Shown here piece by piece: positions 12,578 through 33,376 of a DNA stretch of 61,275 nucleotides (its first letter is position 1; every line of letters starts with the position of its first letter). Where the stretch lies: IMG/VR virus record IMGVR_UViG_3300027769_000034, positions 1 to 61,275 of that record; one strand, 5' to 3'. Under the pieces are notes generated by a model, which was not told where the DNA came from, searched no databases, and saw nothing but the letters and a program-made list of their open reading frames with translations. The stretch is from a virus (lineage: Duplodnaviria > Caudoviricetes). A program made the translations under genes and the position numbers.

Positions 12578-12608
12578 AACACTATTCATCCACTAAACAC
12601 TAAACACG

Positions 12609-12812
12609 ATGATTTTTATTCCTGCTAAACAATCAGACTACAACCGGCTTGCGTTCACATCACGTAAGTCAGTATCAAAGCGTTCTACCGGCTCGAACTT
12701 CGTTGCCCGTGAGCGTGATATCCTGCTCGGCACTACCCGTGCTGTAGTAAATGCTGTTAACCAACTCACCGCTGAGTACTCCAATACTCGTTTGGTGTAC
12801 GTCTGCAAGTAA
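12609..12812 (+). CDS. Early hypothetical protein
   Basis: ORF preceded by TAAACAC motif. Confidence 0.65.
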   Translation: MIFIPAKQSDYNRLAFTSRKSVSKRSTGSNFVARERDILLGTTRAVVNAVNQLTAEYSNTRLVYVCK

Positions 12813-12836
12813 TCAACCTTAAAACCATTAAACACT

Positions 12837-13031
12837 ATGAAAATCTATAATTTCTTTTATCGAATCCAAGAGAACGGAACGACGATAGAAAAACCATTTT
12901 GTGACGTTAGCGGTCAGTTCGAACCGACCGAAACCATCCAACACGAAGTACTAGAAGACCTCCTTAAGCAGGGCGTCATTACGGCATTCGGATGGACCAC
13001 TACGCTTCCATACTCAACTTCAAATAACTAA
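12837..13031 (+). CDS. Early hypothetical protein
   Basis: TAAACACT-ATG start context. Confidence 0.65.
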   Translation: MKIYNFFYRIQENGTTIEKPFCDVSGQFEPTETIQHEVLEDLLKQGVITAFGWTTTLPYSTSNN

Positions 13032-13035
13032 TAAT

Positions 13036-13236
13036 ATGGACCAAGTATCTCAAATCATTGCCTACGAGTCAGGAGAACTCACTGACCAAGAAATCGTGTA
13101 CCTGTTCGCTGACCTAGTTAAATCAGGTATGGCGTGGAGCCTGCAAGGGCACTACGGACGCACTGCTCACCTGTTAATCAGGGAGGGCTACATCGACTTC
13201 GAGGGCAATGTTTCTTTGGCCGCTCTAGAACTTTAA
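13036..13236 (+). CDS. Conserved small phage protein
   Basis: IIAYESGEL...LV.SG.AWSLQGHYGR motif familiar from phage early regions. Confidence 0.75.
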   Translation: MDQVSQIIAYESGELTDQEIVYLFADLVKSGMAWSLQGHYGRTAHLLIREGYIDFEGNVSLAALEL

Positions 13237-13270
13237 CCAACCACTAATTCACTTTTTAAATCTAAACATT

Positions 13271-13843
13271 ATGGAAACTGCAATCAATTACAGCAACGGA
13301 GACCGAGTAATATATAAACCCGGAGAAGGTCACCTACCGGTAAAGGGCGGCGTAGGAAAAAAGGCTACTATCGTCGATGTCGAGAACGGACTCATTCAGT
13401 TCGACAAAAATGTCGGAGGACACGAGGGCTCGGCCGGACTTCCTAGTGGAACGGGATGGTATGTCAACCTTGAGAGGGACGTGGTGCCTGTCAAGCGTGG
13501 GCGTCCAATTAAGAAAGAGGCCGATAAGTATGACGAGGTTCTCTCTGAAATTGCTAAGTCACTAAAGGCGCTTGAGCAAGTAGATATCGACGAGTTAGTT
13601 GCTGAAATCAAAGCACGTTCTGAATCTCGAAAAGTGAAATCTGAGGCTGAACAATACTTCGACTTCGGAGACTCTCACGAATTAGGGATGTCGACGTGTG
13701 AGGGTCCGCTGTACATCCGATACGGCCTTGCTGACCCGTACTTCGAGGGTCGTGAGTTAGGCTTCAATACCGCCGACTACGAGATTCGTATCAACGACCT
13801 TGTGATTCCTACAGGTGCTGTGCTCAGAGCAAAGAAGAAGTAA
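13271..13843 (+). CDS. Early hypothetical protein (SH3-like N-terminus)
   Basis: GDRVIY...ATIVDV pattern; TAAACATT-ATG start context. Confidence 0.7.
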   Translation: METAINYSNGDRVIYKPGEGHLPVKGGVGKKATIVDVENGLIQFDKNVGGHEGSAGLPSGTGWYVNLERDVVPVKRGRPIKKEADKYDEVLSEIAKSLKALEQVDIDELVAEIKARSESRKVKSEAEQYFDFGDSHELGMSTCEGPLYIRYGLADPYFEGRELGFNTADYEIRINDLVIPTGAVLRAKKK

Positions 13844-13852
13844 TCTTCGGTG

Positions 13853-13894
13853 GGTGTGAATGGTTTATGCGGGTTCGATTCCCGCCACACCGCA
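13853..13894 (+). ncRNA. tRNA-like minihelix (acceptor stem + T-arm)
   Basis: GGTGTG...GCGGG-TTCGATT-CCCGC-CACACC; no D or anticodon arm. Confidence 0.6.
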
Positions 13895-13919
13895 ATGTTC
13901 AATTAATTAACTAAACACT

Positions 13920-14321
13920 ATGAAACAGGAAATCAATAAGGTACTAGTTGCCTACGGCGAATACATTAAGGCTGTATCGGCTTTCAGGGATGCTACTGAC
14001 GAGAGCGTACGTAGCAAACTCATCGACTTCTCCATCATCGAGCAGGCCACTGCTGACCTTGGCGAGCAGATACTAGGAGCCAATAAGACCATCGAAGAGC
14101 ACGAGGTTCGTGAGAAGCGAACTAAGGAATATCAAAACTCCTACGGCGTGTTCATCATCGCCGACAGGCTTCAGTACTTCAAGAGCGACTATGACCTTGA
14201 CGAACTATGGGATGAGGCTGTTGAATTATACCTTCAGTTCCTTGACAGCGAGTTCAACGTCTCCACCAAAAGCGAGATGGACTGCATCACCGATTTTTTA
14301 GAACATAACGAATTACTCTAA
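13920..14321 (+). CDS. Early hypothetical protein
   Basis: TAAACACT-ATG start context. Confidence 0.7.
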   Translation: MKQEINKVLVAYGEYIKAVSAFRDATDESVRSKLIDFSIIEQATADLGEQILGANKTIEEHEVREKRTKEYQNSYGVFIIADRLQYFKSDYDLDELWDEAVELYLQFLDSEFNVSTKSEMDCITDFLEHNELL

Positions 14322-14890
14322 TGGAAATTACCTGCTTCGAATGCTCAGGGACTATCAACGAGTCCACTGACTTCTACACCTTTAATATTATAGGTGAGAC
14401 TATCTGCGATTCCTGCGAGCGAAGCCATTGGGAAGGCGCAGTACGTGTGATGCACTACGACCCAAAGTCAGAAGACTTAATTGGTTACCTGCACTGCTAC
14501 TCACTAGGTCAAACCCGTACGTCGGAAGACTTCGAAGAGTGCGATACTCCTGCGCCAATTGACTACGTTCAATGGAAAGCAACCGACGCGTGGCGCGGCT
14601 ACGCGGACGTTCAGTACAAAGACAACTTCGAAGTGGTAGCCAACGGGTGGGCCACAGGTAACTACGACGACGTCAAGTGGAAGTGGGACTTCAATGAGTT
14701 CTACGAAAACATTCAAGATGGAACGCTAGTCCCTCCCGTAGACGTGTGGTTTGTATTCGCTCAGACGAGTAATGTATTCTCTACTGCTGTAGACATCGTC
14801 GTTCACAATCATCAAGCGGCGACGTTCCTGAATTGGCTTGCCGATGAAGCAGGAATGACCCGCAATGAACTCTTGGATGCCTTGAGTTAA
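14321..14890 (+). CDS. Hypothetical protein with N-terminal Zn finger
   Basis: CxxC...CxxC; TDAWRGY motif. Confidence 0.75.
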   Translation: MEITCFECSGTINESTDFYTFNIIGETICDSCERSHWEGAVRVMHYDPKSEDLIGYLHCYSLGQTRTSEDFEECDTPAPIDYVQWKATDAWRGYADVQYKDNFEVVANGWATGNYDDVKWKWDFNEFYENIQDGTLVPPVDVWFVFAQTSNVFSTAVDIVVHNHQAATFLNWLADEAGMTRNELLDALS

Positions 14891-14960
14891 AGAAACCCTC
14901 CGTGCAGGGGATGTGTTTAGTGTTTGGTACTAGGGTGGCACGGCACCCTTTTCCTTTTTT
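14891..14960 (+). terminator. Terminator preceded by a hairpin and an exposed GTGTTTAGTGTTT segment (sRNA-like)
   Basis: CCCT/AGGG hairpin, single-stranded 14911-14931, AGGGTG/CACCCT stem plus T-rich tail. Confidence 0.6.
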
Positions 14961-14969
14961 CTTAAAACT

Positions 14970-15125
14970 ATGCCATACATCGTTTCATTCAACCCCGACA
15001 CACTCCGGTACGACATCTACGACGTACAAAAGTGTAGAGTAATGGCCTCCTACTTCGATAGGGACCAAGCCTTTAACGACGCCAAAAAACGTGAAACATT
15101 TAGAATCAATAAAAAACAATTATGA
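14970..15125 (+). CDS. Small hypothetical protein (51 aa)
   Basis: Manual translation MPYIVSFNPD...; ATGA-coupled to next ORF. Confidence 0.55.
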   Translation: MPYIVSFNPDTLRYDIYDVQKCRVMASYFDRDQAFNDAKKRETFRINKKQL

Positions 15126-15247
15126 AAGACGAACACATTAAGTACTTAGTACTCCGTATTCAAGCCCTTACCGACTACAATAAGAAGTTGGAGGAAAAAA
15201 TAAAACAACTAGAGTCAAATCAAGCCGATGGCAAACTATTGCAATAA
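15122..15247 (+). CDS. Small coiled-coil protein (41 aa)
   Basis: Manual translation MKDEHIKYLVLRIQAL... Confidence 0.5.
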   Translation: MKDEHIKYLVLRIQALTDYNKKLEEKIKQLESNQADGKLLQ

Positions 15248-15737
15248 CTTCGTCAAGTTCAAGTCGTCAAACAACGACGTCTTCGAGCAAATTAAAAAAG
15301 ACATCGAGCGCTACACAAAAGTTCTCTTTTGGGACGTAGAGTTTGACCAACAGGAGGACAATGTGCTGTTCGCTCAGGGCCCTACAAAATGGGTTCCACC
15401 TCACGAACTCCTGACGGAACTAAGTAAAAAGTACGATGTATCAATACACAATGAATACGATGAAATTCAAGGAAACTTTGCAGGACACACTTATTATGAA
15501 TGCGGAACTAAGTTCGACTTTAGTCTTCCATTCTACGAATACTTTTTCTACAATAACCCTGATGAGTTCCAATACCACCTTTCAAACTTTATTCTTTCGA
15601 TGCGGCACAACTCAGACTTCGACTATGCCGTAGACCTTTTAACTATGGGATGGGTTAACACCCCTGACTCAGACACCCTCAACTACATTAAGGAAGTATA
15701 CACTAAAACCCAATCACTAATCTCTAAATCAATTTAA
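15228..15737 (+). CDS. Ferredoxin-like-fold phage protein (DUF1281/YubB-like)
   Basis: MANYCNN...TKWVPP...LSKKY...YDE...FAG pattern. Confidence 0.55.
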   Translation: MANYCNNFVKFKSSNNDVFEQIKKDIERYTKVLFWDVEFDQQEDNVLFAQGPTKWVPPHELLTELSKKYDVSIHNEYDEIQGNFAGHTYYECGTKFDFSLPFYEYFFYNNPDEFQYHLSNFILSMRHNSDFDYAVDLLTMGWVNTPDSDTLNYIKEVYTKTQSLISKSI

Positions 15738-15739
15738 AA

Positions 15740-16642
15740 ATGGAAATCAATCAATTCGGTCAACTCGTTGACACCCACAACTCGCTCGTTTCTGCCAAGG
15801 CTACTGCCCAAATGCTAGACTCTTTCGGTCTCAATTGGATAGTCGAAAAGCAACCACTACTTCTCCCATCAGGGACGGAATCAGGTTATTTCGGAGTGGT
15901 ACGAAAGGACACTGAGACAGTGTTCACTACTGCCACCTCTCAGTATGAGGTCTTTCAGAACGAAGAACTGGCAGAACTAGTACAGGAGGTTGCTCAGACA
16001 CTCGGCTCAAGCATCGCTCGAGGCGGCCTGTTCAACGACGGCGGTAAGGTATACCTTCAAATCCCTATGGAAGACAAGGTTATCGGTACCGACCTAGTAA
16101 AGCGCTACGCCACAGCAATCAACAGCCACGACGGAACTACTGCTCTTCGTTGGGGTGCGTCAAGCGTTACTATCTCTTGCAAAAACTCCTTCAATGCTGC
16201 GGCAAAGGACCTAAAGGATAGCGTCCGCCACACGGCAAATATGCGCCGCGCCGTAGAAGAATCTCTTCGTGCCATCCAAGGTATCAACGACGCTGACGCT
16301 ACGCTCTACGAGGTGTTCCGACGTATGGCTGACAAGCAAGTACGACAGCCTGACATTCAGCGTGTAGTAGATGCTGTTGTAGGTGTAGATATCCTCAAGT
16401 CTGCCAAGACTGCACGTGACGAGTACTCTACTCGACGCCTGAACCAAGCGCAGGACCTGAGTGTGTCAATCGCTAAAGAGATGTCTTACAAGGGCGATAA
16501 CCTTTGGGGACTATTCTCAGGTGTGACCCACTACACTACGCACAAAGCCGGTCGCGAAGGCAGCCGCGAGGTGTCTAAGATGACGGGCTCTCTGCAGAAG
16601 ACTGACCAACGTGTGTTCAATATTCTAGCAGAACTAGTATAA
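15740..16642 (+). CDS. DUF932 family protein
   Basis: GLNWIVEK, YEVFQN, NSHDGT, CKNS, LWGLFSGVTHY motifs. Confidence 0.85.
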   Translation: MEINQFGQLVDTHNSLVSAKATAQMLDSFGLNWIVEKQPLLLPSGTESGYFGVVRKDTETVFTTATSQYEVFQNEELAELVQEVAQTLGSSIARGGLFNDGGKVYLQIPMEDKVIGTDLVKRYATAINSHDGTTALRWGASSVTISCKNSFNAAAKDLKDSVRHTANMRRAVEESLRAIQGINDADATLYEVFRRMADKQVRQPDIQRVVDAVVGVDILKSAKTARDEYSTRRLNQAQDLSVSIAKEMSYKGDNLWGLFSGVTHYTTHKAGREGSREVSKMTGSLQKTDQRVFNILAELV

Positions 16643-16670
16643 GAGGTGGGGCTTCGGCCCCATCTTTTTT
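16643..16670 (+). terminator. Intrinsic terminator
   Basis: GGTGGGGC-TTCG-GCCCCATC plus T-tract. Confidence 0.85.
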
Positions 16671-16688
16671 CTTAATTTTAAGAAAACT

Positions 16689-17030
16689 ATGTATATGATA
16701 CTTTCTGAGAATGATTTCACATCTATGGTGTTTCGGTTTGCTTTCGAGCATAACGGTGCACATAGAGAATTCGACGTACAACCTGAGGGCAGGTGGCAGG
16801 TCGAATGCGCTACTGACAATGACGGACAAGAGTACATTTTGGTCATTGAACTAGACCTAAACGACCACGTCAATGCGTACGTCGAGGCCATTACCTTGAC
16901 TGACTTTCTTATCGCCGATGAGGCAGTAGGAGAAGAAATGTTCTCAGACTATGTATTCAGTAAAGTATGTGGTCTAGAAGATGGCACGCTAAGTTTAATC
17001 TTAAGTAAACCGAATGAGAAATCTGATTAA
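16689..17030 (+). CDS. Hypothetical acidic protein
   Basis: ORF with A-rich start context. Confidence 0.65.
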   Translation: MYMILSENDFTSMVFRFAFEHNGAHREFDVQPEGRWQVECATDNDGQEYILVIELDLNDHVNAYVEAITLTDFLIADEAVGEEMFSDYVFSKVCGLEDGTLSLILSKPNEKSD

Positions 17031-17172
17031 AAAAGTGCTGTTCACAATCATCTTCATTCTAGGTTCGGTATATGTCGGCTCTATGCTTGATAATGAGCCA
17101 ATTATAGGGGTGATTACGATGCTTGCAGCAGTCGCGTTTTACGGAATTGGAGAGCGAGTCGGGATATTCTGA
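17014..17172 (+). CDS. Small membrane protein (52 aa)
   Basis: Manual translation MRNLIKKVLFTIIFILGSVYVG...; two hydrophobic segments. Confidence 0.55.
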   Translation: MRNLIKKVLFTIIFILGSVYVGSMLDNEPIIGVITMLAAVAFYGIGERVGIF

Positions 17173-17204
17173 CTTGCTTTCTAGTTCAATCTTTTGTATA
17201 TTTG
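17173..17204 (+). promoter_or_regulatory. Promoter for recombination/replication operon
   Basis: cTTG-20 nt-TATATTTG. Confidence 0.7.
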
Positions 17205-17223
17205 TATCACTAATTTATTGAAA

Positions 17224-17742
17224 ATGTCTACATATAAGTTCAAATCAACCAACATCAAGGGTAAAGAGTACGTAGAGGTAAATCAACGACTTCTTTACTT
17301 CCGCAACGAACCAACTTACGTAGGATATAGCATCGAGAACGAGATAGTCGCAGTAGACTCTGAGTCGTGTATCGTAAAGTCTACCATCCGGAATGCTGAA
17401 CATCGAGTAGTGGCTGTTGCTCACGCTCAGGAGGATAGAACCTCTTCGCATATCAATAAGACTAGTTACATCGAGAACTGCGAGACCTCTGCTGTTGGGC
17501 GAGCCCTTGCTATGCTCGGTATCGGTATCGAGACCTCGATTGCATCTGCAAACGAAGTTCAGATGGCTGTAGCCAAGCAGGAAATCGCACAAGAAAAGAA
17601 AGAGGAGACTCTATTCGAGAAGTCTGTTAACTACATCAAAGGCGCTAGCAATAAGAAAGAGGCCCTTGAGCAAGTGCTGACTAAGTACGGAACTGAGTTC
17701 TCAGACAAACAAAAAGAAGCCCTAACCAAATTTGTGAAATGA
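17224..17742 (+). CDS. Putative ssDNA-annealing recombinase (Rad52/Sak-like)
   Basis: IKGKEYVEV..R...ENCETSAVGRALAMLGIG motif. Confidence 0.6.
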   Translation: MSTYKFKSTNIKGKEYVEVNQRLLYFRNEPTYVGYSIENEIVAVDSESCIVKSTIRNAEHRVVAVAHAQEDRTSSHINKTSYIENCETSAVGRALAMLGIGIETSIASANEVQMAVAKQEIAQEKKEETLFEKSVNYIKGASNKKEALEQVLTKYGTEFSDKQKEALTKFVK

Positions 17743-18029
17743 CCCAAGAATTACCTGTGCAATTAGTCGAGCCCATCACTAAGAGCACCAAGTATTTCGG
17801 TGTCGACCCAAAGGTTAAAAGTGCTAAGAGAAGAGTAGTAAATGCTCGTATGATGGTAATCAATTACCTGATTCGCAACCTAGGTGTATCAAATGCAACT
17901 ATCTGCGACATCTTTAACATCAAGCATACGCTAGTTATTTACTACCTTAACCGGCACGAAGAACTAGTCGTGTCAGACAACGTGTACCGAGATACATATA
18001 TTGCGTACAAATCCTTTCTTTTTAATTAA
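17739..18029 (+). CDS. HTH protein, DnaA C-terminal-like
   Basis: VNARMM...TICDIFNIKHTLVIY. Confidence 0.5.
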   Translation: MTQELPVQLVEPITKSTKYFGVDPKVKSAKRRVVNARMMVINYLIRNLGVSNATICDIFNIKHTLVIYYLNRHEELVVSDNVYRDTYIAYKSFLFN

Positions 18030-18044
18030 TCAAAACCCCCTCTT

Positions 18045-18293
18045 ATGCAAGATAAGAAAGACGAGATGGTCGGCTACGTAGAGACGCCCACTCTTAACCT
18101 TCGATTCAGCCTGTCTAAACAGGATATCGAAATCATCAGTAAGAATATGACCGAAAAGGGTCGTGCCTTTCTGACTGTTCGTGCAGGCGTTGCCAAAGAA
18201 AGCAAGAAGCCTTACTCGATTCTTAGCGTATGGGACCCGGCCTCAAAGGGTAACGTATCTATTAAGCAGAGTAACGACGATATGCCGTTCTAA
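18045..18293 (+). CDS. Small SSB-like protein
   Basis: Acidic SSB-type C-terminal tail DDMPF; near annealing protein. Confidence 0.45.
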   Translation: MQDKKDEMVGYVETPTLNLRFSLSKQDIEIISKNMTEKGRAFLTVRAGVAKESKKPYSILSVWDPASKGNVSIKQSNDDMPF

Positions 18294-18622
18294 TGCTCCT
18301 CGAAATATCGAGATTGCTATGCCTTGAGTGGGGGATGATTCCGTTATCGGATAAGTCCCCCATTTTTGTCTTAGCAAAGGATGGAAAAGAATATGCTATT
18401 GGTATTGCAGTCGCAAAGCCCGATAGTTTTATCCTAAACTTCGAGCCTTTTGGAGATTCTATTATGCCAAATTTCTTGGCTGTCTTGGTAATTGGAAAGG
18501 CAAACGATAACTTTATCGTAATAAAATCAAAGGGTCACGAGGCTGCCATAAGAAGCGGCTCGCTGAACGCAAAAGAAATTGTTGAAGACATCATCTATAA
18601 AAACAGGATTGAATATGAGTAG
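18293..18622 (+). CDS. Hypothetical protein
   Basis: TAATG-coupled ORF. Confidence 0.6.
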   Translation: MLLEISRLLCLEWGMIPLSDKSPIFVLAKDGKEYAIGIAVAKPDSFILNFEPFGDSIMPNFLAVLVIGKANDNFIVIKSKGHEAAIRSGSLNAKEIVEDIIYKNRIEYE

Positions 18623-18890: not shown

Positions 18891-18967
18891 GCTCTCGTAG
18901 CTCAATTGGATAGAGCAACGCACTTCTAATGCGTAGGTTACAGGTTCGATTCCTGTCGGGAGTACCA
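18891..18967 (+). tRNA. tRNA-Arg (anticodon TCT)
   Basis: Full cloverleaf GCTCTCG/CGGGAGT, ACGCA-CTTCTAA-TGCGT, ACAGG-TTCGATT-CCTGT, encoded CCA. Confidence 0.96.
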
Positions 18968-18979
18968 AATAAAAATGTA

Positions 18980-19240
18980 ATGACCAAGTATACTAACCGA
19001 TACGGAGACGAGTTCACGTTTGAGAAGAACGAGAACGGCAACATTGACTGGAAGGGAGACCTGAAGTACACACGATACGGATGGAACGACGACGACAAAA
19101 TCATATTCGTTGACCCAAGCGGGGGACCATATATACCTGTCGGCACGAATATGTCGCTGTATGGGCTTGATGGAATCGTATCAGGATTCGTTGACCACGG
19201 CGACTATTGGGAGATTCTAATTGAGGATAAAACGCTATGA
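18980..19240 (+). CDS. Hypothetical protein
   Basis: NRYGD...FVDPSGGPYI motif; start moved downstream of the tRNA. Confidence 0.7.
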   Translation: MTKYTNRYGDEFTFEKNENGNIDWKGDLKYTRYGWNDDDKIIFVDPSGGPYIPVGTNMSLYGLDGIVSGFVDHGDYWEILIEDKTL

Positions 19241-19410
19241 GCAAAGACGCCATCCACAAACGAGGTAAGCAGTTCTGTCAGTACTGCAAAAAAGAGACGA
19301 TGCATACACCAAAGCTTGGCCTTGTAATGCAAGGCAGGCGGCTGTGCGAGCAGTGTAACAGGTCTAACGATTTTGCAAGTGATAACCCGCCAAAAGCAGA
19401 AATAAAATAG
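19237..19410 (+). CDS. Small Zn-ribbon protein (57 aa)
   Basis: Manual translation with CQYC...CEQC; ATGA coupling. Confidence 0.6.
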   Translation: MSKDAIHKRGKQFCQYCKKETMHTPKLGLVMQGRRLCEQCNRSNDFASDNPPKAEIK

Positions 19411-19440
19411 AGTTTTGGCATATTATAAAACCAACTAGAA

Positions 19441-19743
19441 ATGAAACGACTAACGAGAGAACAAAAGAAGGAGAAGGCAATGATTGACATCGTCAATAAG
19501 ATGTTTGAGATTGCTGGACACGATGTAACCTACGACGACATCGTAGGCGTAGACGAGTGGTGGCAGAAGTACACTATGACTATTGCTCAGGGCGAACAAC
19601 TTGAGGAGTGGGGCAAGCAGTACCTTATGCGAGAACTCAAGATGCGAGCAGTCTATGCAGAGAAGGAGATGCAGTGGTTCAGTGTAATGTGGGGGCTGAA
19701 GTATTCAGACTTTGACGAACACATCAAGAGTAAATTAAAATGA
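19441..19743 (+). CDS. Hypothetical protein
   Basis: 100-aa ORF in operon. Confidence 0.7.
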   Translation: MKRLTREQKKEKAMIDIVNKMFEIAGHDVTYDDIVGVDEWWQKYTMTIAQGEQLEEWGKQYLMRELKMRAVYAEKEMQWFSVMWGLKYSDFDEHIKSKLK

Positions 19744-19895
19744 AAATAGAACTTCAACCATACTGTCACACCTGCGGAGACGGGTGTTGCGATGAATACG
19801 GATACAACGTACTTGTAGACGGAAAGATAATTGGGTCTATTGGAGAAGATGCTCAAGAGTTAGCAGACCTCCTAAATGATACATTTATATCATAA
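19740..19895 (+). CDS. Small Cys-rich protein (51 aa)
   Basis: Manual translation MKIELQPYCHTCGDGCCDEYG... Confidence 0.6.
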   Translation: MKIELQPYCHTCGDGCCDEYGYNVLVDGKIIGSIGEDAQELADLLNDTFIS

Positions 19896-19978
19896 TTTTT
19901 TTCTGAAACCTAAATACATTTGTCAGACCGAGAAAGCCTGATGCGGTTAAATGAGGGCACACTTTAAATCTAATTCAA

Positions 19979-20167
19979 ATGAAAAAAGGAACATTAGTCT
20001 GGGTACTTGCTGAAGTAAGTGAGTACCAAGAGACCAACACTGATGAGGATACTATCATTGTAGAGCCTCAAGGAAGGAAGGCATTGCCTTACTACGCTCC
20101 TGCTGAGGTGGTCATAAGGCTCACGGATGATGAGATTTGCGACCTAGAGATGAAAGAAATTATTTAA
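19979..20167 (+). CDS. Hypothetical protein; its stop lies in the first array repeat
   Basis: Ends at TAA of TAACACCAACAAGGAA. Confidence 0.65.
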   Translation: MKKGTLVWVLAEVSEYQETNTDEDTIIVEPQGRKALPYYAPAEVVIRLTDDEICDLEMKEII

Positions 20168-20274
20168 CACCAACAAGGAATTAGAACTCCGCCCGCTTAT
20201 GGCGCATTAGGATTCAGCAAGCGGAAAGCTACCGCCCTGATTAACGGAGTCTTTTTCTTTAACACCAACGAGAA

Positions 20275-20490
20275 ATGAGAACACCAAAAGAGAAAGCAAA
20301 GGAATTATTTGAGAAATTCCTATTTTATACATTGAATGATTTTTCAGATGAAAACTTTGAACAAACAAGGCAATGTGCATTGGTTGCAGTTAATGAGATG
20401 TTAGGTCTTGGCGCAATAGTCGGTAGTGATTTATCAGACTCATTCTACATCTATTGGGAAGAAGTAAAACAAGAAATTAAAAACCTTTAA
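20275..20490 (+). CDS. Array cassette protein (TPKEKAKEL type)
   Basis: Starts and stops within junction repeats. Confidence 0.75.
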   Translation: MRTPKEKAKELFEKFLFYTLNDFSDENFEQTRQCALVAVNEMLGLGAIVGSDLSDSFYIYWEEVKQEIKNL

Positions 20491-20502
20491 AACCTACGAC
20501 AA

Positions 20503-20856
20503 ATGAAACAGACAGCAGTACAACTTGTTTACGACTTAGTTAAATCGGGACTGACCGCTAAGGAGATAGTAAACGCCCTTTTAGCAGATGAGAAGTTAAT
20601 ACTTGAGAAGGAGAAGGAGATTATCGTCGACTTCACCATAAAGCACAGCGATGACAAGGTCGAAAAGATTGACTATGATTATAAAAGAACCTTTAATATC
20701 AGCGATAAAATGAAAACACCAATCGAAATGCTGAATGCTATAATCCAAATGCAAGAAGCGCACTCTGGACGTGCATTCGATACACATATGGCATTAAATG
20801 AGCTTGCTAAAGAAGCAAAGGAAGTGGTAAAATCTTACACAGAAAACGAGAAATGA
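20503..20856 (+). CDS. Array cassette protein, MKQTAV family fused to a second cassette
   Basis: Internal degenerate junction at 20694-20713 with in-frame MKTPIE. Confidence 0.7.
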   Translation: MKQTAVQLVYDLVKSGLTAKEIVNALLADEKLILEKEKEIIVDFTIKHSDDKVEKIDYDYKRTFNISDKMKTPIEMLNAIIQMQEAHSGRAFDTHMALNELAKEAKEVVKSYTENEK

Positions 20857-21035
20857 AAAACTACTTTTCACGATTGAAGAATCACGCAGGGTTACCGCTT
20901 GCTATTGGTATTGCGTTATTCCTTTTTGCCTACTCATATCTTACCAAACCTTTAGCTGACAGTATTGCTTTGGGATTGTTTTGCAGTTCGCCAATATGGT
21001 TAACGGTATTGATTTCAAACTTTTTTAATGACTAA
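20853..21035 (+). CDS. Array cassette, two-TM membrane protein
   Basis: Two hydrophobic segments; repeat-bounded. Confidence 0.65.
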   Translation: MKNYFSRLKNHAGLPLAIGIALFLFAYSYLTKPLADSIALGLFCSSPIWLTVLISNFFND

Positions 21036-21047
21036 CACCAACGAGAA

Positions 21048-21179
21048 ATGAAACAAGAAGAACCAAGCAACGATATGTGCGAATGCAAAGTCCCACAACC
21101 ACAAATCAAAGTCAGTGAAAATGGAACATATGCTTACTGCACAAAATGTATAAGAACAATTAACAACAACAAGAAATGA
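21048..21179 (+). CDS. Array cassette, Cys-rich peptide (43 aa)
   Basis: Manual translation MKQEEPSNDMCECK...YCTKC; repeat-bounded. Confidence 0.6.
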   Translation: MKQEEPSNDMCECKVPQPQIKVSENGTYAYCTKCIRTINNNKK

Positions 21180-21340
21180 AAAGAACACTAATTATTTACA
21201 ACACAAAAGAGACTACACAAGAAGAAGCAGCACACCTTCTTGATATCCTTAACTGCGATGATTCTATGATATGGGATAATGCAGATAGATGCGGAGTAGA
21301 AATTATTGAAGTACCAACAGATAAAACAAAAGATAAATGA
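21176..21340 (+). CDS. Array cassette peptide (54 aa)
   Basis: Manual translation MKRTLIIYNTKETT...; repeat-bounded. Confidence 0.6.
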   Translation: MKRTLIIYNTKETTQEEAAHLLDILNCDDSMIWDNADRCGVEIIEVPTDKTKDK

Positions 21341-21561
21341 AACAGACAGCAGTAGATTGGTTAGTCCAAGAATTATCTAAAAAGGGGGATTACGGACTAG
21401 GTTTTTATTTAGAACACAAAGACGAAATAATCCAAGCCAAAGAAATGGAGAAGGAGCAGATGTGCGTATTTTTTCAATCGTTTGAATACGAATACTTCAA
21501 TGGCAATGTTTCAAGCATAGACGAACACTATGACAAAACCTTTAAACCCAACGAGAAATGA
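21337..21561 (+). CDS. Array cassette, MKQTAV family
   Basis: MKQTAVDWL...QAKEMEKEQ...YDKTFKPNEK. Confidence 0.8.
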   Translation: MKQTAVDWLVQELSKKGDYGLGFYLEHKDEIIQAKEMEKEQMCVFFQSFEYEYFNGNVSSIDEHYDKTFKPNEK

Positions 21562-21749
21562 AAACACAAACACATCAAGAGTTGATATCTATTGCAGACA
21601 AACTCTACCGAGAGCAAAACCCAACGGGAACTATGTGTACACCCAATAGTGTATATATAACAGTGCTTGAAAATTGGTACCCTAAATATGTAGAATCTAA
21701 AAGCGAATTAGATTTCTATGACTACTGCTATAAAACCTACGACAAATGA
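21558..21749 (+). CDS. Array cassette protein
   Basis: Repeat-bounded ORF. Confidence 0.7.
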   Translation: MKTQTHQELISIADKLYREQNPTGTMCTPNSVYITVLENWYPKYVESKSELDFYDYCYKTYDK

Positions 21750-21979
21750 AACAGACAGCAGTAGAGTGGTATGAAAATGAAATCAATGCTTTATTTGATA
21801 AATATGAGAATAAAGAAATTTCAAAAATTGAGTTTCTGATAATGAAGCACAACCTTTTCTACCCAGCCAAAGAAATGGAGCAGGAGCAAATGATTGATTG
21901 GTATGCTACGGGGCAGGCAGATACAGTAAATATGTATGAGCAACACCTCAACAAAAACTCTAACACCAACGAGAAATGA
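21746..21979 (+). CDS. Array cassette, MKQTAV family
   Basis: MKQTAVEWY...AKEMEQEQ...NTNEK. Confidence 0.8.
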   Translation: MKQTAVEWYENEINALFDKYENKEISKIEFLIMKHNLFYPAKEMEQEQMIDWYATGQADTVNMYEQHLNKNSNTNEK

Positions 21980-22407
21980 AACAGACGGCAGTAGAGTGGT
22001 TACAACAGGCGTTGGAAGACACGATATTAACGCACGAACAGATTATGCAAACAATTGGTTTATTTGAGCAAGCTAAAGATATTGATGCAGAGCGTGCTTA
22101 TGGTATTTACGAAAAGTGGTTTTGGGATAATTTACCTTCAAAATCGTCTTCTGAAGGGAAATTAAGCCAAAAAGAGTTTTATAACAGATATTTTAAAATG
22201 AAACAGACAGCAGTAGAATGGCTTGTTAATATGTGGGAGATGCAAGGTACAATCACACCACTTGATATTAGAGAAGCAAAAAGAATCGAGAAAGAGCAGA
22301 TTGAAGATGCTTTTGAAAAAAGTAGGCTAACGCACCCAATGATTGGATTTAAACACAAAACATTTAAAGACTACTACAACGAAACCTTTAACACCAACGA
22401 GAAATGA
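21976..22407 (+). CDS. Array cassette, tandem fusion of two MKQTAV units
   Basis: Second MKQTAVEWL begins in frame at 22198. Confidence 0.8.
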   Translation: MKQTAVEWLQQALEDTILTHEQIMQTIGLFEQAKDIDAERAYGIYEKWFWDNLPSKSSSEGKLSQKEFYNRYFKMKQTAVEWLVNMWEMQGTITPLDIREAKRIEKEQIEDAFEKSRLTHPMIGFKHKTFKDYYNETFNTNEK

Positions 22408-22637
22408 ATGAGGTTGACATCTTCATCAATCGTATGAGGCGTATCGGTATTGAGCTTGAGCTGATGGGTAACATCCCTTGGATATACCTTATCTCAGTAA
22501 ACGGCAATAGACTACAGGAAGAGGACTGGGATGCCAACTACGGCTTCACCATTGCTTGGTATCCAGTGCGTGTCGGAGAAACCTACAAGCTGGCTGATGT
22601 CAAGAGAACATTTGAAGTAATACGTAAGTACAAATGA
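22404..22637 (+). CDS. Hypothetical protein
   Basis: GNIPWIYL..VNG motif; starts in last repeat. Confidence 0.7.
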   Translation: MNEVDIFINRMRRIGIELELMGNIPWIYLISVNGNRLQEEDWDANYGFTIAWYPVRVGETYKLADVKRTFEVIRKYK

Positions 22638-22813
22638 AAACAGAAGAAGAAAAGTGGGAGCTGATAAAGAAGTTGGTGTATGATAAGATTCGTCATACGT
22701 TCCACTCTAGCAGCGTTCAGTTCCTAAACAAACAGCAGTGCGAGAAGGTCGCTGACTTTATCGTAGAGCTGTCAAAAAATGAAACTCAACTCGGAGAAAA
22801 TCCGAATAACTAA
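22634..22813 (+). CDS. Small hypothetical protein (59 aa)
   Basis: Manual translation MKTEEEKWEL...; ATGA coupling. Confidence 0.55.
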   Translation: MKTEEEKWELIKKLVYDKIRHTFHSSSVQFLNKQQCEKVADFIVELSKNETQLGENPNN

Positions 22814-22826
22814 ACAAAACCTGACA

Positions 22827-23015
22827 ATGAAAACATCAAACAAATACCCAAGCGTTGGATTCTCTGGATTCCTAACCATTTTATTTATTGCCCTAAAGCT
22901 TACCGGATACATCACTTGGTCTTGGTGGTGGGTATTATCTCCAATGCCAATTCAATTTGCTGCTGGGGTAGTACTTATAGCTACTGGTGTCATTCTTCAA
23001 AGACTATGGAAATGA
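22827..23015 (+). CDS. Small membrane protein
   Basis: LFIALKLTGYITWSWWWVLSP motif common in phages. Confidence 0.75.
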   Translation: MKTSNKYPSVGFSGFLTILFIALKLTGYITWSWWWVLSPMPIQFAAGVVLIATGVILQRLWK

Positions 23016-23353
23016 CAATCAAAACAGGAAAGTACTACTCCCAGTGGGGATTCGGTGTATCGTTTGTCAACTACACCAAAGGTATGTGGTCAATAGTAGT
23101 CGACCTTGGTCCGTACTACATTGACTTCTACAATATGAACGGTAACAAAGGCGACAACCTTGAGGCATTCAACGAGTTCTACAAGAACATCGACGATGAC
23201 TTCGGTCCTGCTCCGGCCTGCGACAAGTGCGGAAAGGAAAGCGAGTCGTGGGATGATATTATGTACAACATAGAGTCCGCAACAAAGTGGGAATTGTGGT
23301 GCTACAAGTGTGTTGATGAGAAAAATAAAAGCAAAAAGAATGAAAAATCCTAG
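23012..23353 (+). CDS. Hypothetical protein with C-terminal Zn finger
   Basis: CDKC...CYKC; ATGA coupling. Confidence 0.6.
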   Translation: MTIKTGKYYSQWGFGVSFVNYTKGMWSIVVDLGPYYIDFYNMNGNKGDNLEAFNEFYKNIDDDFGPAPACDKCGKESESWDDIMYNIESATKWELWCYKCVDEKNKSKKNEKS

Positions 23354-23486
23354 ACTGATTGCTGAACAATACAAAAAAGCGCAGTACTTTCGCAACGTCT
23401 GTATGTATAACAGGAAGGATGCTGAGGCTAAGTACTGGGAAGGATACATAGACGCATTAAGTTTAATTTTAGAAACAGAGAAATGA
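23340..23486 (+). CDS. Small hypothetical protein (48 aa)
   Basis: Manual translation MKNPRLIAEQY...YWEGYIDAL. Confidence 0.55.
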   Translation: MKNPRLIAEQYKKAQYFRNVCMYNRKDAEAKYWEGYIDALSLILETEK

Positions 23487-23782
23487 CAACAGGAGAGCTG
23501 TTCCTCGCAGTAGAGGACTGGGCTAGAGACCGCAATTTGCTCGAGCCAGAATACAAAAGCCGTCAGGCACTTAAGGTAATGGAAGAAGTCGGTGAGACGA
23601 TGGCCGCACTTGCTCGTGGAGACAAGGAGAAACTTGCCGATGGCATCGGAGACTCAATTGTCACAATCATCATCCTCGCCGCTCAGGCAAACCTAAGCGC
23701 TCACGACTGCCTTCAGTTGGCTTACAACGAAATCAAAGATAGAAAGGGACGTATGGTTGATGGAGTCTTCATCAAAGAATAA
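23483..23782 (+). CDS. MazG-like NTP pyrophosphohydrolase
   Basis: WA.DRNL...KVMEEVGE...DGIGD...AYNEIKDRKG...GVFIKE. Confidence 0.88.
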   Translation: MTTGELFLAVEDWARDRNLLEPEYKSRQALKVMEEVGETMAALARGDKEKLADGIGDSIVTIIILAAQANLSAHDCLQLAYNEIKDRKGRMVDGVFIKE

Positions 23783-24021
23783 TGTATCCCATATACTATC
23801 TTGAGATAGAAGTATCTATTCGCAAAGCAAAAAACACTTTTACTAAGTCTACTTGGGCCGTATCTAAGTACGACAACTCGTATGACATTATGTCTAAAGA
23901 CAAAAAGACAATGGACAGACTTGACGAGGAGTTGTATGGCTCTGCTTACAAAGGCGAAAAGCGAATAGCAATAACTAAAGTTAAATCTATTAAAAAAGTT
24001 GGAGACTCAGCATTCCTATGA
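23782..24021 (+). CDS. Hypothetical protein
   Basis: Coupled ORF. Confidence 0.65.
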   Translation: MYPIYYLEIEVSIRKAKNTFTKSTWAVSKYDNSYDIMSKDKKTMDRLDEELYGSAYKGEKRIAITKVKSIKKVGDSAFL

Positions 24022-31548: not shown

Positions 31549-32337
31549 ATGGACGAGCTTATAACCCTGCTCAACGGCGAAGAACGCCTTGCTGCAGATT
31601 TAATGGAACTGATGATGGATGACAGTTTCTATTATGGATATCTCGGCAAGCACGCGCTCTCATCTTCTGCGTGCAAGATGTTGCTGGAATCTCCGAAGAC
31701 ATACTACTATGTAACGAAGTATGGCCAGAAAGAGGACACGGCAGCGCTGTTGACAGGGAAGCTCATTCATACTATGATTCTAGAGCCTCAAGAGTTTGAA
31801 AAAAGGTTTGATGTTTCGTCTACTAAGGGAAAGACGACAAAGGCATTCAAAGAGCTTAAGGGTGCTTCAGACAAGGCGGTAATCACGTCTGCCGAATATG
31901 ATGCTGCGATGAGGATAGTAGACGCATTCAACCGAAACGAGATTATGAAAGAGTACTTGAAGGGCTCTACATTTGAGACTCCTGGAATCTCTATGCTGTT
32001 CGGGCTTCCGTTCAGGGCTAAGGCTGACATCATAAACTTTGAGCAAGGTTTTATCGCAGACATCAAGACTACGACAGACGTTCAAAGTGGCTTTAGATTC
32101 TCAGCTAGGAAGTACGGATATGATATGCAGGCCTACATCTACACTCAGATTTTTGGTATCAGAGACTTCTACTTTTTGGCAATAGATAAAAAAAGTTTAG
32201 ACCTTGGTGTGTTTACTGTGTCAGACCAGTTTATCTTTGACGGAGAACAAAAGGTCGAGCTAGCCGTAAACAGATTCAAAAAGTTCTTCATCGACGGGCA
32301 AGACCTTGACACCTATACAATCGTAGACGAGTTATAA
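31549..32337 (+). CDS. RecE/exonuclease VIII-like PD-(D/E)XK nuclease
   Basis: LSSS..K, G.LIH..ILEP, RAKAD, DIKTT, YDMQAYIY. Confidence 0.8.
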   Translation: MDELITLLNGEERLAADLMELMMDDSFYYGYLGKHALSSSACKMLLESPKTYYYVTKYGQKEDTAALLTGKLIHTMILEPQEFEKRFDVSSTKGKTTKAFKELKGASDKAVITSAEYDAAMRIVDAFNRNEIMKEYLKGSTFETPGISMLFGLPFRAKADIINFEQGFIADIKTTTDVQSGFRFSARKYGYDMQAYIYTQIFGIRDFYFLAIDKKSLDLGVFTVSDQFIFDGEQKVELAVNRFKKFFIDGQDLDTYTIVDEL

Positions 32338-32954: not shown

Positions 32955-33376
32955 TACTTAAATCGATATAAGAACATCATTATAACTAGAGCCGAGGCTA
33001 AAAACAAAAGTAAGTAATTCTTGACCTTACCAGTTTTGCTCTCCGGCTGAACGAGCTGCGGGGGGCATTCAACAGATACCTGCTTAGCAACCGGTCTTTC
33101 CTTCACCTCTGTCTTTACGATAAGGCGGTCCTGGAATTTAGTAATAACAATTCTTACGGTGTCATTGTCAATAACCGAGGAGTCCTCAGCAGATGGGATA
33201 GATACCGTATCAATCAGCGTTATTGGCGGAATCACTATCGTGTCCCATTTCGTAACAACCGTGGGCCTCAGGATAGATGGGTCTTTCTTGACTGCCTGAT
33301 TCAAGTGCCAGCTCGCGCTGCAGCTTGCTAAGAACCCAATTAGTGATAGGGTTGAGATGGATTTCCATATGTTCAT
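32954..33376 (-). CDS. Lipoprotein with C-terminal TM helix (spanin candidate)
   Basis: Lipobox FLASC; C-terminal YLLLFLASALVIMMFLY. Confidence 0.65.
   Translation of the reverse strand: MNIWKSISTLSLIGFLASCSASWHLNQAVKKDPSILRPTVVTKWDTIVIPPITLIDTVSIPSAEDSSVIDNDTVRIVITKFQDRLIVKTEVKERPVAKQVSVECPPQLVQPESKTGKVKNYLLLFLASALVIMMFLYRFK

Follow-up and report, generated by a model that had tools for sequence, protein, structure and literature searches.

The virus record IMGVR_UViG_3300027769_000034 in IMG/VR (Caudoviricetes), analysed here over its entire 61,275 bp and called the window below, carries a tandem array of very small open reading frames (ORFs) joined by a short repeat, the connector, whose 19-nt core is TAACACCAACGAGAAATGA; the completeness estimate of this record is 100%. 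Comparison with other phage contigs shows that units of this array, each a tiny ORF with its connector, are exchanged as cassettes between phage genomes, and that the connector is an element of the nucleotide sequence and not a protein tail. The reading we favour, and regard as probable, is that promoter-less cassettes share a portable translational junction which doubles as a short-homology crossover site. Positions 19744–22633 would then be a hypervariable slot filled with promoter-less mini-gene cassettes, each made of one tiny ORF and a 3′ connector. Since every cassette ends in the same connector sequence, any cassette placed behind any other could be translated, by termination–restart or by Shine-Dalgarno-independent initiation. 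The connectors would be the only homology common to unrelated cassettes, and recombination at them would add, delete, permute and exchange cassettes, both within one genome and between phage genomes, with the phage's own annealing protein and exonuclease carrying out the crossovers.

The repeat strings and positions given in a first-pass annotation of this DNA proved correct in an exact-match scan: the 19-mer is exact at 20260, 21033, 21961 and 22389, and exact copies of a 33-nt variant stand at 20488 and 21731. Allowing up to three mismatches yields ten copies (19426, 20165, 20260, 20488, 21033, 21161, 21543, 21731, 21961 and 22389), all on the + strand within 19426–22407, with none in 100 shuffles; an eleventh, at 21322, is found once the A-variant consensus is also allowed. 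The full connector is 19–26 nt long and reads AAACCTT-TAACACCAA(A/C)GAGAA-ATGA. It carries the stop codon of its own cassette's ORF, as TAA in one frame or as the TGA of ATGA in another, and the start codon of the next unit, preceded by an A/C-rich, weakly structured stretch. Copies end in the ATG of the next small ORF, the exception being the degenerate copy at 20165, which has ATT. According to the ORF table, three ORFs stop at the connector TAA (19979–20167, 20275–20490 and 20853–21035) and four have the ending ..NEK and use the TGA within ATGA as their stop (20503–20856, 21337–21561, 21746–21979 and 21976–22407). The TAA-N12-ATGA geometry that had been proposed agrees with this table, and it breaks down at 20165 and at the junctions 19740 and 22634. 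The connector is asymmetric and A/C-rich, without dyad symmetry or hairpin; no inverted repeat coincides with a connector in 19900–22700, where the only one found (21781/21888) sits elsewhere. The units had also been described as AT-rich, which holds (G+C 0.371 at 20001–22000 vs 0.41–0.49 elsewhere), and as mixed in cargo, which is equally correct: there are MKQTAV paralogues (20503, 21337, 21746, 21976), a membrane-like 60-amino-acid (aa) ORF, a Cys-rich 43-aa ORF and a start-less unit at 20184–20259.

Across 141 distinct IMG/VR contexts of the exact 19-mer, conservation reaches 7 nt further in the 5′ direction (AAACCTT) and 2 nt in the 3′ direction, and then disappears. One frame of this extended connector reads (D/E)YYNETFNT(K/N)EK and stop, the C-terminus of the commonest cargo family; a second frame has an in-frame TAA (..ENL and stop). 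The upstream ORF ends at TGA (..NT[KN]EK) in 129 of 267 distinct contexts and at TAA in 59. In the remaining 79, some of them misclassified by the ATG-only rule or by a TAG within variant connectors, no ORF of at least 20 codons ends in the connector; this class includes connectors directly after tRNA 3′ ends, after hairpins with T-runs and after repeated promoter-like motifs. Because it is read in two frames and is present after tRNAs and hairpins, the connector is not a protein tail, and the conservation is at the nucleotide level. Unrelated families (MKIELEAY.., MNYIKIAKW.., MRTPPAYG..) gain or lose the tail ..FNTKEK according to frame. In loci selected by their primase, and thus chosen independently of the connector motif and unbiased for it, 9/9 ORFs ending in NT[KN]EK use AAC, GAG, AAA and TGA, against background frequencies of 0.61, 0.54, 0.39 and 0.38.

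These data bear on the idea that the repeat was left over when a single paralogous family (MKQTAV...YYNETFNT[KN]EK) was duplicated in tandem and that it has no role of its own. The largest family (49 of 265 ORFs) does start with MKQTAV or MKTPMQE and end in YYNETFNTKEK, and synonymous variation upstream (tactac, tattac, tactat) shows protein-level selection on YYNETF. However, the second frame is used in the 59 TAA contexts, up to 79 contexts have no upstream ORF at all, the codons within the connector are invariant, and the connector joins 128 unrelated families. Such an origin is largely refuted and seems to us extremely improbable.

The comparison sequences are metagenome assemblies throughout, the key contigs coming from 12 different datasets. 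Single window cassettes recur in them at 84–99% DNA identity with different neighbours. With genes named by their start coordinates, the window order is g19979, the unit at 20184, g20275, g20503, g20853, g21048, g21176, g21337, g21558, g21746, g21976, g22404; contig L108 has g19979, g21558, g21048; L127 has g20853, g21176, g21048; L164 has g20503, X, g20853, X, g21176, X, g21048, X, g21746; and L182 has g20853 followed by a g21746-like gene. Together with L180 and L126, six contigs have permuted orders. For the nine cassette families with an abutting right neighbour in at least three contigs, 61 contig observations gave 50 distinct neighbour families. Variable cassette order among relatives, which the first-pass annotation had expected of an exchange system, is therefore what is seen.

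Sequence identity also separates the array from the rest of these genomes. L164 shares 1073 nt with the window at 90.5% identity, all within the array, and nothing else across 61 kb; its array proteins are 75–95% identical, vs 35–50% for primase, exonuclease and endolysin-like proteins. In L108, L180 and L182 the array proteins are 91–100% identical and the backbone 30–51%, and in L035, L107 and L128 the corresponding values are 89–94% for cassettes and 67–72% for the backbone. The same slot, between g19441 and g22634 (84–97% protein identity), holds one cassette in L187, two in L173 and 14 units in the window, and in L008 and L035 the two outer flank genes are adjacent. The protein of g19441 ends in KSKINTNEK where a connector follows and in KSKLK otherwise.

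L035 provides a separate observation on the surrounding genes. At 14264–18305 it has its array, along with several small flank genes, on the downstream side of the primase-helicase instead of the upstream side, and in another order (g22404, g19237, g18929, g19441, g23340, g23483, g18615); small-gene shuffling therefore reaches beyond the connector array.

The exchanged segments end close to start codons. Three cassettes aligned over four or five contigs are about 90–97% identical from ATG to the next ATGA and unrelated outside. A broader set of 35 high-scoring segment pairs (HSPs; identity at least 80%, length at least 90 nt) has 69 free ends, of which 55 fall within −25 to +10 of a start codon, a zone that makes up 16.7% of positions (binomial 2e-30); counted as distinct positions, 38 of 50 do so (4e-20). 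These counts, the alignments and the comparison of the flank-gene slot all agree with the earlier proposal that breakpoints fall on the repeat. A second cluster, of five HSP ends, lies at 21865–21891 within an intragenic island of 27–31 nt conserved among MKQTAV genes (AKEMEKEQ); this AKEMEKEQM island is found at 21862–21892 and also at 21432–21462 and 22272–22302. Among homologues of g21746, 116 of 120 listed carrying the central motif, the N half is joined to 41 C-half types and the C half to 11 N-half types, a star pattern that is partly built in because the homologue search favours proteins sharing either half. As a hotspot inside a gene is not explained by selection for whole genes, the island hints that crossovers are driven by homology.

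It could be argued instead that the connector is conserved as an expression signal only, be it for translation initiation or as a site for a phage or host RNA-binding regulator or nuclease, which would make it the basis of a post-transcriptional regulon comparable to the start-associated sequences of mycobacteriophages, and that the pattern of exchange results from illegitimate recombination anywhere followed by selection for intact genes. The element keeps a constant position at the ATG and a single orientation, accessibility is predicted for it, and it also stands before first genes that follow tRNAs, hairpins or promoter-like repeats; moreover, some cassettes move without a canonical connector. 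However, the intragenic breakpoint cluster coincides with another conserved nucleotide island, to which whole-gene selection does not apply, and the homology of shuffled cassettes stops inside the shared connector, not in variable spacers. We consider this explanation unlikely, while giving it real weight.

A technical origin has to be considered as well, namely that the apparent shuffling is an assembly artefact in which different phages were joined at a short repeat. The relatives are all assembled contigs, and in Logan contigs of four public runs (X2, X5, X7 and X9, mapped at likeness 90) many pieces break at or near connectors or have short-sided joints; among the pieces listed for these runs none spans the array. 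Most joints have sides of fewer than 30 letters and may derive from other phages, and stretches left uncovered carry no evidential weight. One joint that goes back from 22408 to 21566, seen in contigs only, has 12 other nucleotides in it and is what a variant cassette would give, rather than a circle of this genome. On the other hand, the key contigs come from different datasets, contigs of an independent study bridge the window junctions 20260, 20853 and 21176 without any difference (though they do not confirm the complete order), and the protein collection shows like mosaicism. Repeats of 19–43 nt are, furthermore, shorter than read lengths and than the large k of the usual assemblers. An artefact of this kind is thus very unlikely. 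Over 19400–23400, bins that contain a connector or AKEMEKEQ reach a summed contig depth 2–4 times as high as the flanks (in run X2, 2643 at 21410–21543 vs about 450–700), which fits many community cassettes sharing these islands.

Turning to function, no Shine-Dalgarno sequences were found ahead of the window's genes. The predicted unpaired probability over −18 to +2 is 0.726 for the 11 connector-led starts, 0.628 for 39 other + strand starts and 0.475 for all positions; a fully open 12-mer is predicted at 0.346, 0.177 and 0.036, respectively. The positional signs are a fixed register with the ATG, a single strand, upstream stops within the connector, and placement before first genes. From position and predicted RNA accessibility, we infer that the connector acts in translation. 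Bacteroidota reportedly start translation without Shine-Dalgarno pairing, with a preference for leaders that are A-rich and unstructured (work by Baez et al. 2019).

A role in transcription is the obvious counterpart: the connector might be a phage-specific promoter, as in the promoter-early stem-loop (PeSL) cassettes of T4, with every cassette forming a separate transcription unit whose mRNA might be leaderless. Each small gene has one copy, the connector is strand-specific, and in some loci it comes directly after hairpin plus T-run terminators; the hairpin unit of the window is likewise followed by a connector. However, the connector contains the end of an upstream ORF in 188 of 267 contexts, usually through an ATGA overlap, and 0 nt separate the element from the ATG. 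Connectors coincide neither with promoter-like sites (sigma-70-like hexamer pairs) nor with terminator-like sites; the former number 11 vs 18.9 expected and the latter 3 vs 5.8 expected. Nor does the connector fit the Bacteroidota −7 box, which we take to be TAnnTTTG, and phages of very different genome size would all need the same polymerase specificity. A promoter therefore seems quite improbable, and the translational junction remains the reading we prefer.

As to what might carry out the crossovers, the window encodes on its + strand a PD-(D/E)XK exonuclease resembling RecE / exonuclease VIII (31549..32337; PF12684 (DUF3799) 2.4e-27, phrog_412 7.5e-40), as the first-pass annotation had suggested. 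Its other suggestion, an annealing protein encoded at 17224..17742 (+), has fared less clearly. The AlphaFold2 (AF2) model (predicted local distance difference test score, pLDDT, 78.9) resembles a Rad52/Mgm101/Red-beta-like fold, the best Foldseek match being Mgm101 (E 7.6e-4, template modelling score, TM, 0.44), followed by Rad52, Red-beta and Sak, all with moderate scores. The product matched no Pfam or named PHROG family, and its profile found nothing among PDB sequences. We regard it as a candidate single-strand annealing protein. Annealing protein and exonuclease may together drive the exchange, their one link to the array being their presence in the genome. Rad52-like phage recombinases are said to allow relaxed recombination, their annealing proteins tolerating short, diverged homology (work by De Paepe et al. 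2014).

The alternative is that a site-specific enzyme which has escaped recognition (a recombinase, or a homing or nicking endonuclease) reads the connector, making the array a true integron analogue. A site of 19–26 nt that is extremely constant across phages with backbone proteins only 30–51% identical would suit such an enzyme, and many window proteins belong to no known family. However, the complete 61-kb record has no match to the tyrosine recombinase family PF00589 (Phage_integrase; controls positive in 14/14 genomes) and none to the serine recombinase family PF00239 (Resolvase), so that the term 'integrase-free' holds for this genome. The connector also lacks dyad symmetry, and crossovers occur at the unrelated intragenic island as well. 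We rate a dedicated enzyme as very improbable. The accompanying term 'integron-like' survives as an analogy only. Integrons likewise have promoter-less single-gene cassettes in a tandem array, expressed from outside and variable in order and content from a shared pool; unlike integrons, the array has no IntI-type recombinase and no attC-like imperfect palindrome, and its carrier is a virulent phage.

Several points weigh against a translational junction that doubles as a crossover site. The canonical connector is missing at the window junctions 19740 and 22634, and g21176 occurs in L116 and L103 without one upstream. Fourteen of the 69 HSP ends lie away from start codons; these ends cannot count as independent observations, and L204 and L035 are one contig, a duplication for which the count of distinct positions allows. 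Breakpoints at gene boundaries are also expected from random recombination with selection for intact genes. The codon test comprises nine ORFs with shared ancestry, the gain in accessibility over ordinary starts is modest, with 3 of 11 connectors below the 93rd percentile, and the candidate annealing protein owes its assignment to a model match with a TM of 0.44. Among the Logan contigs of the four runs there was no circle junction and no long-sided joint, and any single metagenome contig may contain mis-joins at repeats.

The connector is far from confined to the window. The exact 19-mer occurs in at least 119 IMG/VR contigs, and local connector clusters are found in contigs of 212, 114, 100 and 72 kb; a match to the window's terminase was missing in four of the five contigs searched. 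Relatives selected by primase (958 kb) have 30 copies in forward and 2 in reverse orientation, and none of 153 connector-bearing loci has copies on both strands. Arrays hold 2–9 copies at a median spacing of 218 nt, that of the window being the largest sampled. Among 50,697 deposited phage records the connector was absent, a 43-nt query giving two matches at chance level, and blastn of the locus against deposited phages returned only three short matches, to a downstream membrane gene. In 596 Gb of prokaryote genomes there were 13 connector stretches, with about 9 expected by chance, six of them labelled Bacteroidota; at least two exact copies occurred only in L209, L211 and L218. Single matches in Bacilli, Ruminiclostridium and others were dismissed, the count being near the chance estimate.

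The cargo pool is large and obscure. The 265 distinct connector-led ORFs fall into 128 families, of which 88 are singletons; the median ORF length is 66 aa, and 245 of the 265 have no more than 100 aa. The largest family, MKQTAV/MKTPMQE (49/265), corresponds to 347 clusters in the protein collection and has no Pfam domain and no meaningful name there. Searches of the array proteins against Pfam and PHROGs gave nothing usable apart from phrog_21441 and a weak phrog_30424, both uncharacterised families. For MKQTAV a three-helix bundle is predicted (model pLDDT 84.6), without a structural match in the PDB (best E 3.2). Our guess from gene position and size is that the cargo consists of accessory early proteins. 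A broader proposition is that uncultured phages of freshwater and marine Bacteroidota draw on one pool of promoter-less mini-genes, joined by a universal 26-nt 'plug' in which stop, restart signal and crossover site are combined; virulent phages would then possess a recombinase-free functional analogue of the integron. This we put forward tentatively, as somewhat less likely than not.

In other contigs, the connector stands right after a tRNA 3′ end (L096, at 2607, L099, L198, L217, L172 and L218). The first connector of the arrays in L101, L117, L168, L176, L157 and L067, and in L102, L137, L152, L167, L179 and L188, follows direct repeats (..AGGCGCA..N..AGGCGCAAACCTT, or ..CAAAGTGTAAA.. twice), which look like operator or promoter regions.

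No description of the connector was found in the literature, either in a full-text search for a 16-nt motif core or in a keyword search judged by title or abstract, with supplements and subscription journals outside their scope. An older parallel is offered by lambdoid phages, with their morons and their boundary or linker sequences: in work by Juhala et al. 2000 and Clark et al. 2001, short conserved sequences at gene boundaries were reportedly proposed as crossover points of mosaicism. Unlike those linkers, the connector is a single, highly uniform motif at the array junctions, and lambdoid morons carry their own promoter and terminator whereas connector cassettes are promoter-less.

The nearest described systems are the T4 PeSLs and the start-associated sequences (SAS) of mycobacteriophages. 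PeSL cassettes of T4-type phages combine a sigma-70-like promoter with a terminator stem-loop, so that each ORF is its own transcription unit, and their mini-circles have been physically demonstrated (Arbiol et al. 2010, PMC2839356; Comeau et al. 2014, PMC4122927). As with PeSLs, a short conserved motif lies between small, mostly uncharacterised, non-essential genes in hyperplastic regions, bounds indels and replacements between related phages, and has been proposed as a point of homologous exchange for otherwise unrelated sequences; in our loci, too, indels and replacements between relatives in the small-ORF region are bounded by the connector. The connector, by contrast, is a stop/start junction overlapping with coding sequence; it matches no promoter, terminator or hairpin, and it is common to phages of very different genome size. 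PeSL mini-circles, moreover, were seen physically, whereas the contigs searched here gave no circle junction.

The SAS of cluster K mycobacteriophages is a 13-bp repeat with an AGGAG Shine-Dalgarno core, 3–7 bp from the start codon, for which a role in translation initiation has been suggested (Pope et al. 2011, PMC3203893). The connector resembles it in being an asymmetric short repeat immediately upstream of starts, in one orientation, in the non-structural half of the genome and before different families, with the upstream stop codon sometimes inside the repeat, and in being all but missing from host genomes. Unlike the SAS, the connector is 19–26 nt long, of unrelated sequence and without a Shine-Dalgarno core, and it abuts and includes the ATG. 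The SAS is also confined to one cluster and, in the passages covered here, is not reported as a breakpoint of cassette shuffling.

Whether phage mosaicism arises through short conserved linkers or through random joining and selection is an old open question. The connector array offers an unusually clean natural test bed for it, with a uniform junction, hundreds of tiny cassettes and breakpoints located nearly to the nucleotide, including an intragenic hotspot. It also identifies, in Bacteroidota phages, a large set of mobile accessory genes for small, uncharacterised proteins that are presumably early, and provides a candidate Shine-Dalgarno-independent translation element for hosts whose initiation signals are poorly understood. 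If the shared-pool reading is true, phages whose core proteins are 30–50% identical would trade early accessory genes at near-identity, perhaps for host takeover or anti-defence.

The array units, all on the + strand, begin with a connector variant (TAAAACCAACTAGAAATGA, 19426..19444, two mismatches) that precedes the conserved left-flank gene at 19441–19743, which has homologues in 12 loci. The first cassette ORF (19740..19895; 51 aa, Cys-rich, MKIELQPYCHTCGDGCC..) starts by an ATGA overlap without a canonical connector, and its homologues in L173, L160 and L154 end in ..ETFNT[KN]EK via the connector. The next ORF (19979..20167, 62 aa) stops at a connector TAA; its protein is 100% identical in L108 and L191, with different right neighbours there. 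Then comes the degenerate connector TAACACCAACAAGGAATTA (20165..20183; three mismatches, ATT instead of ATG), followed by a G+C-rich unit of about 76 nt (20184..20259) with nested stems or a hairpin and a T-run, which lacks an ATG in the window and ends at an exact connector (20260..20278). This unit always directly follows a connector (contigs L035, at 15439, L097, L107, L125, L128, L151, L159, L208 and L218). Seven other distinct copies at 91–96% identity (nine matches including the window, L204 repeating L035) have an ATG that opens a 27–32-aa ORF (MRTPPAYGALGFSKR..). It may be a peptide gene, a terminator or an RNA. We did not call it an RNA gene: its fold (−25.5 kcal/mol, z −2.06) is slightly better than that of shuffles, and Rfam gave no match over 19000–24000 at E up to 1.

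A 71-aa ORF with a phrog_21441 match (20275..20490) stops at the TAA of a connector variant that starts the 33-nt exact repeat (20488..20506). By inspection of the sequence, the MKQTAV-family ORF at 20503..20856 (117 aa, family D2) is two units fused: a relic connector shifted by 1 nt at 20694–20713 (TFNISDK-MKTP) keeps the frame open. The membrane-like 60-aa ORF (20853..21035) has the start context ACAGAAAACGAGAAATGA, and its DNA is 93–97% identical in L164, L180, L126 and L182 with unrelated flanks. An exact connector (21033..21051) leads to the Cys-rich 43-aa ORF (21048..21179), a cassette about 93–97% identical from ATG to the next ATGA in L108, L164 and L127, again with unrelated flanks. 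The variant TAACAACAACAAGAAATGA (21161..21179) precedes a 54-aa ORF (21176..21340) present in L164, L127, L116 and L103, and the variant TAAAACAAAAGATAAATGA (21322..21340) precedes a 74-aa MKQTAV-family ORF ending in KPNEK (21337..21561). Another variant (21543..21561) leads to a 63-aa ORF (21558..21749) whose protein is 98% identical in L108; its two neighbours there are g19979 and g21048.

The second copy of the 33-nt repeat starts with the connector variant at 21731..21749, ahead of a 77-aa MKQTAV-family ORF (21746..21979, family D7) with the conserved island 21862–21892 (AKEMEQEQM). After an exact connector (21961..21979) comes a fused double MKQTAV ORF (21976..22407; 143 aa, family D1), whose second unit runs from an internal ATG at 22198 and whose frame is kept open across a decayed connector at 22180–22200 (YFK-MKQTAV). 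The last exact connector (22389..22407) precedes a 77-aa cassette ORF (22404..22637), the protein of which is 79% identical in L035, elsewhere in that genome. The right-flank gene (22634..22813) encodes a protein 97% conserved in L187 and L173.

The array lies in a block of + strand genes (about 10.6–32.7 kb) that includes a DUF932 protein, a BT4734-N/DnaB-C primase-helicase, both ribonucleotide reductase subunits and the PD-(D/E)XK exonuclease; a tRNA-Arg(TCT) (18891–18967) stands just upstream of the variable region. The − strand carries the portal, the large terminase, virion proteins and a tail-fibre-like protein. The phage is virulent, and this non-structural block is presumably early. 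By primase-helicase comparison the nearest cultured phages infect Flavobacteriaceae, Maribacter phage Panino being the closest (34.6% identity) and Cellulophaga, Flavobacterium and Nonlabens phages following in the ranking; the host is most likely a Flavobacteriaceae-type bacterium. Among public runs holding the locus, 24 from 20 studies are listed, with labels that are mostly freshwater, lake-water or aquatic metagenomes.

Two further features of the window were noted. The structural block on the − strand contains, at 33373–43269, an ORF of 3298 aa without a PHROG match at 1e-5. Another start-associated motif, TAAACAYNATG, has four matches vs 0.25 expected, each of them ahead of one of four + strand genes that follow one another (12609, 12837, 13271 and 13920; region 12601–13922).

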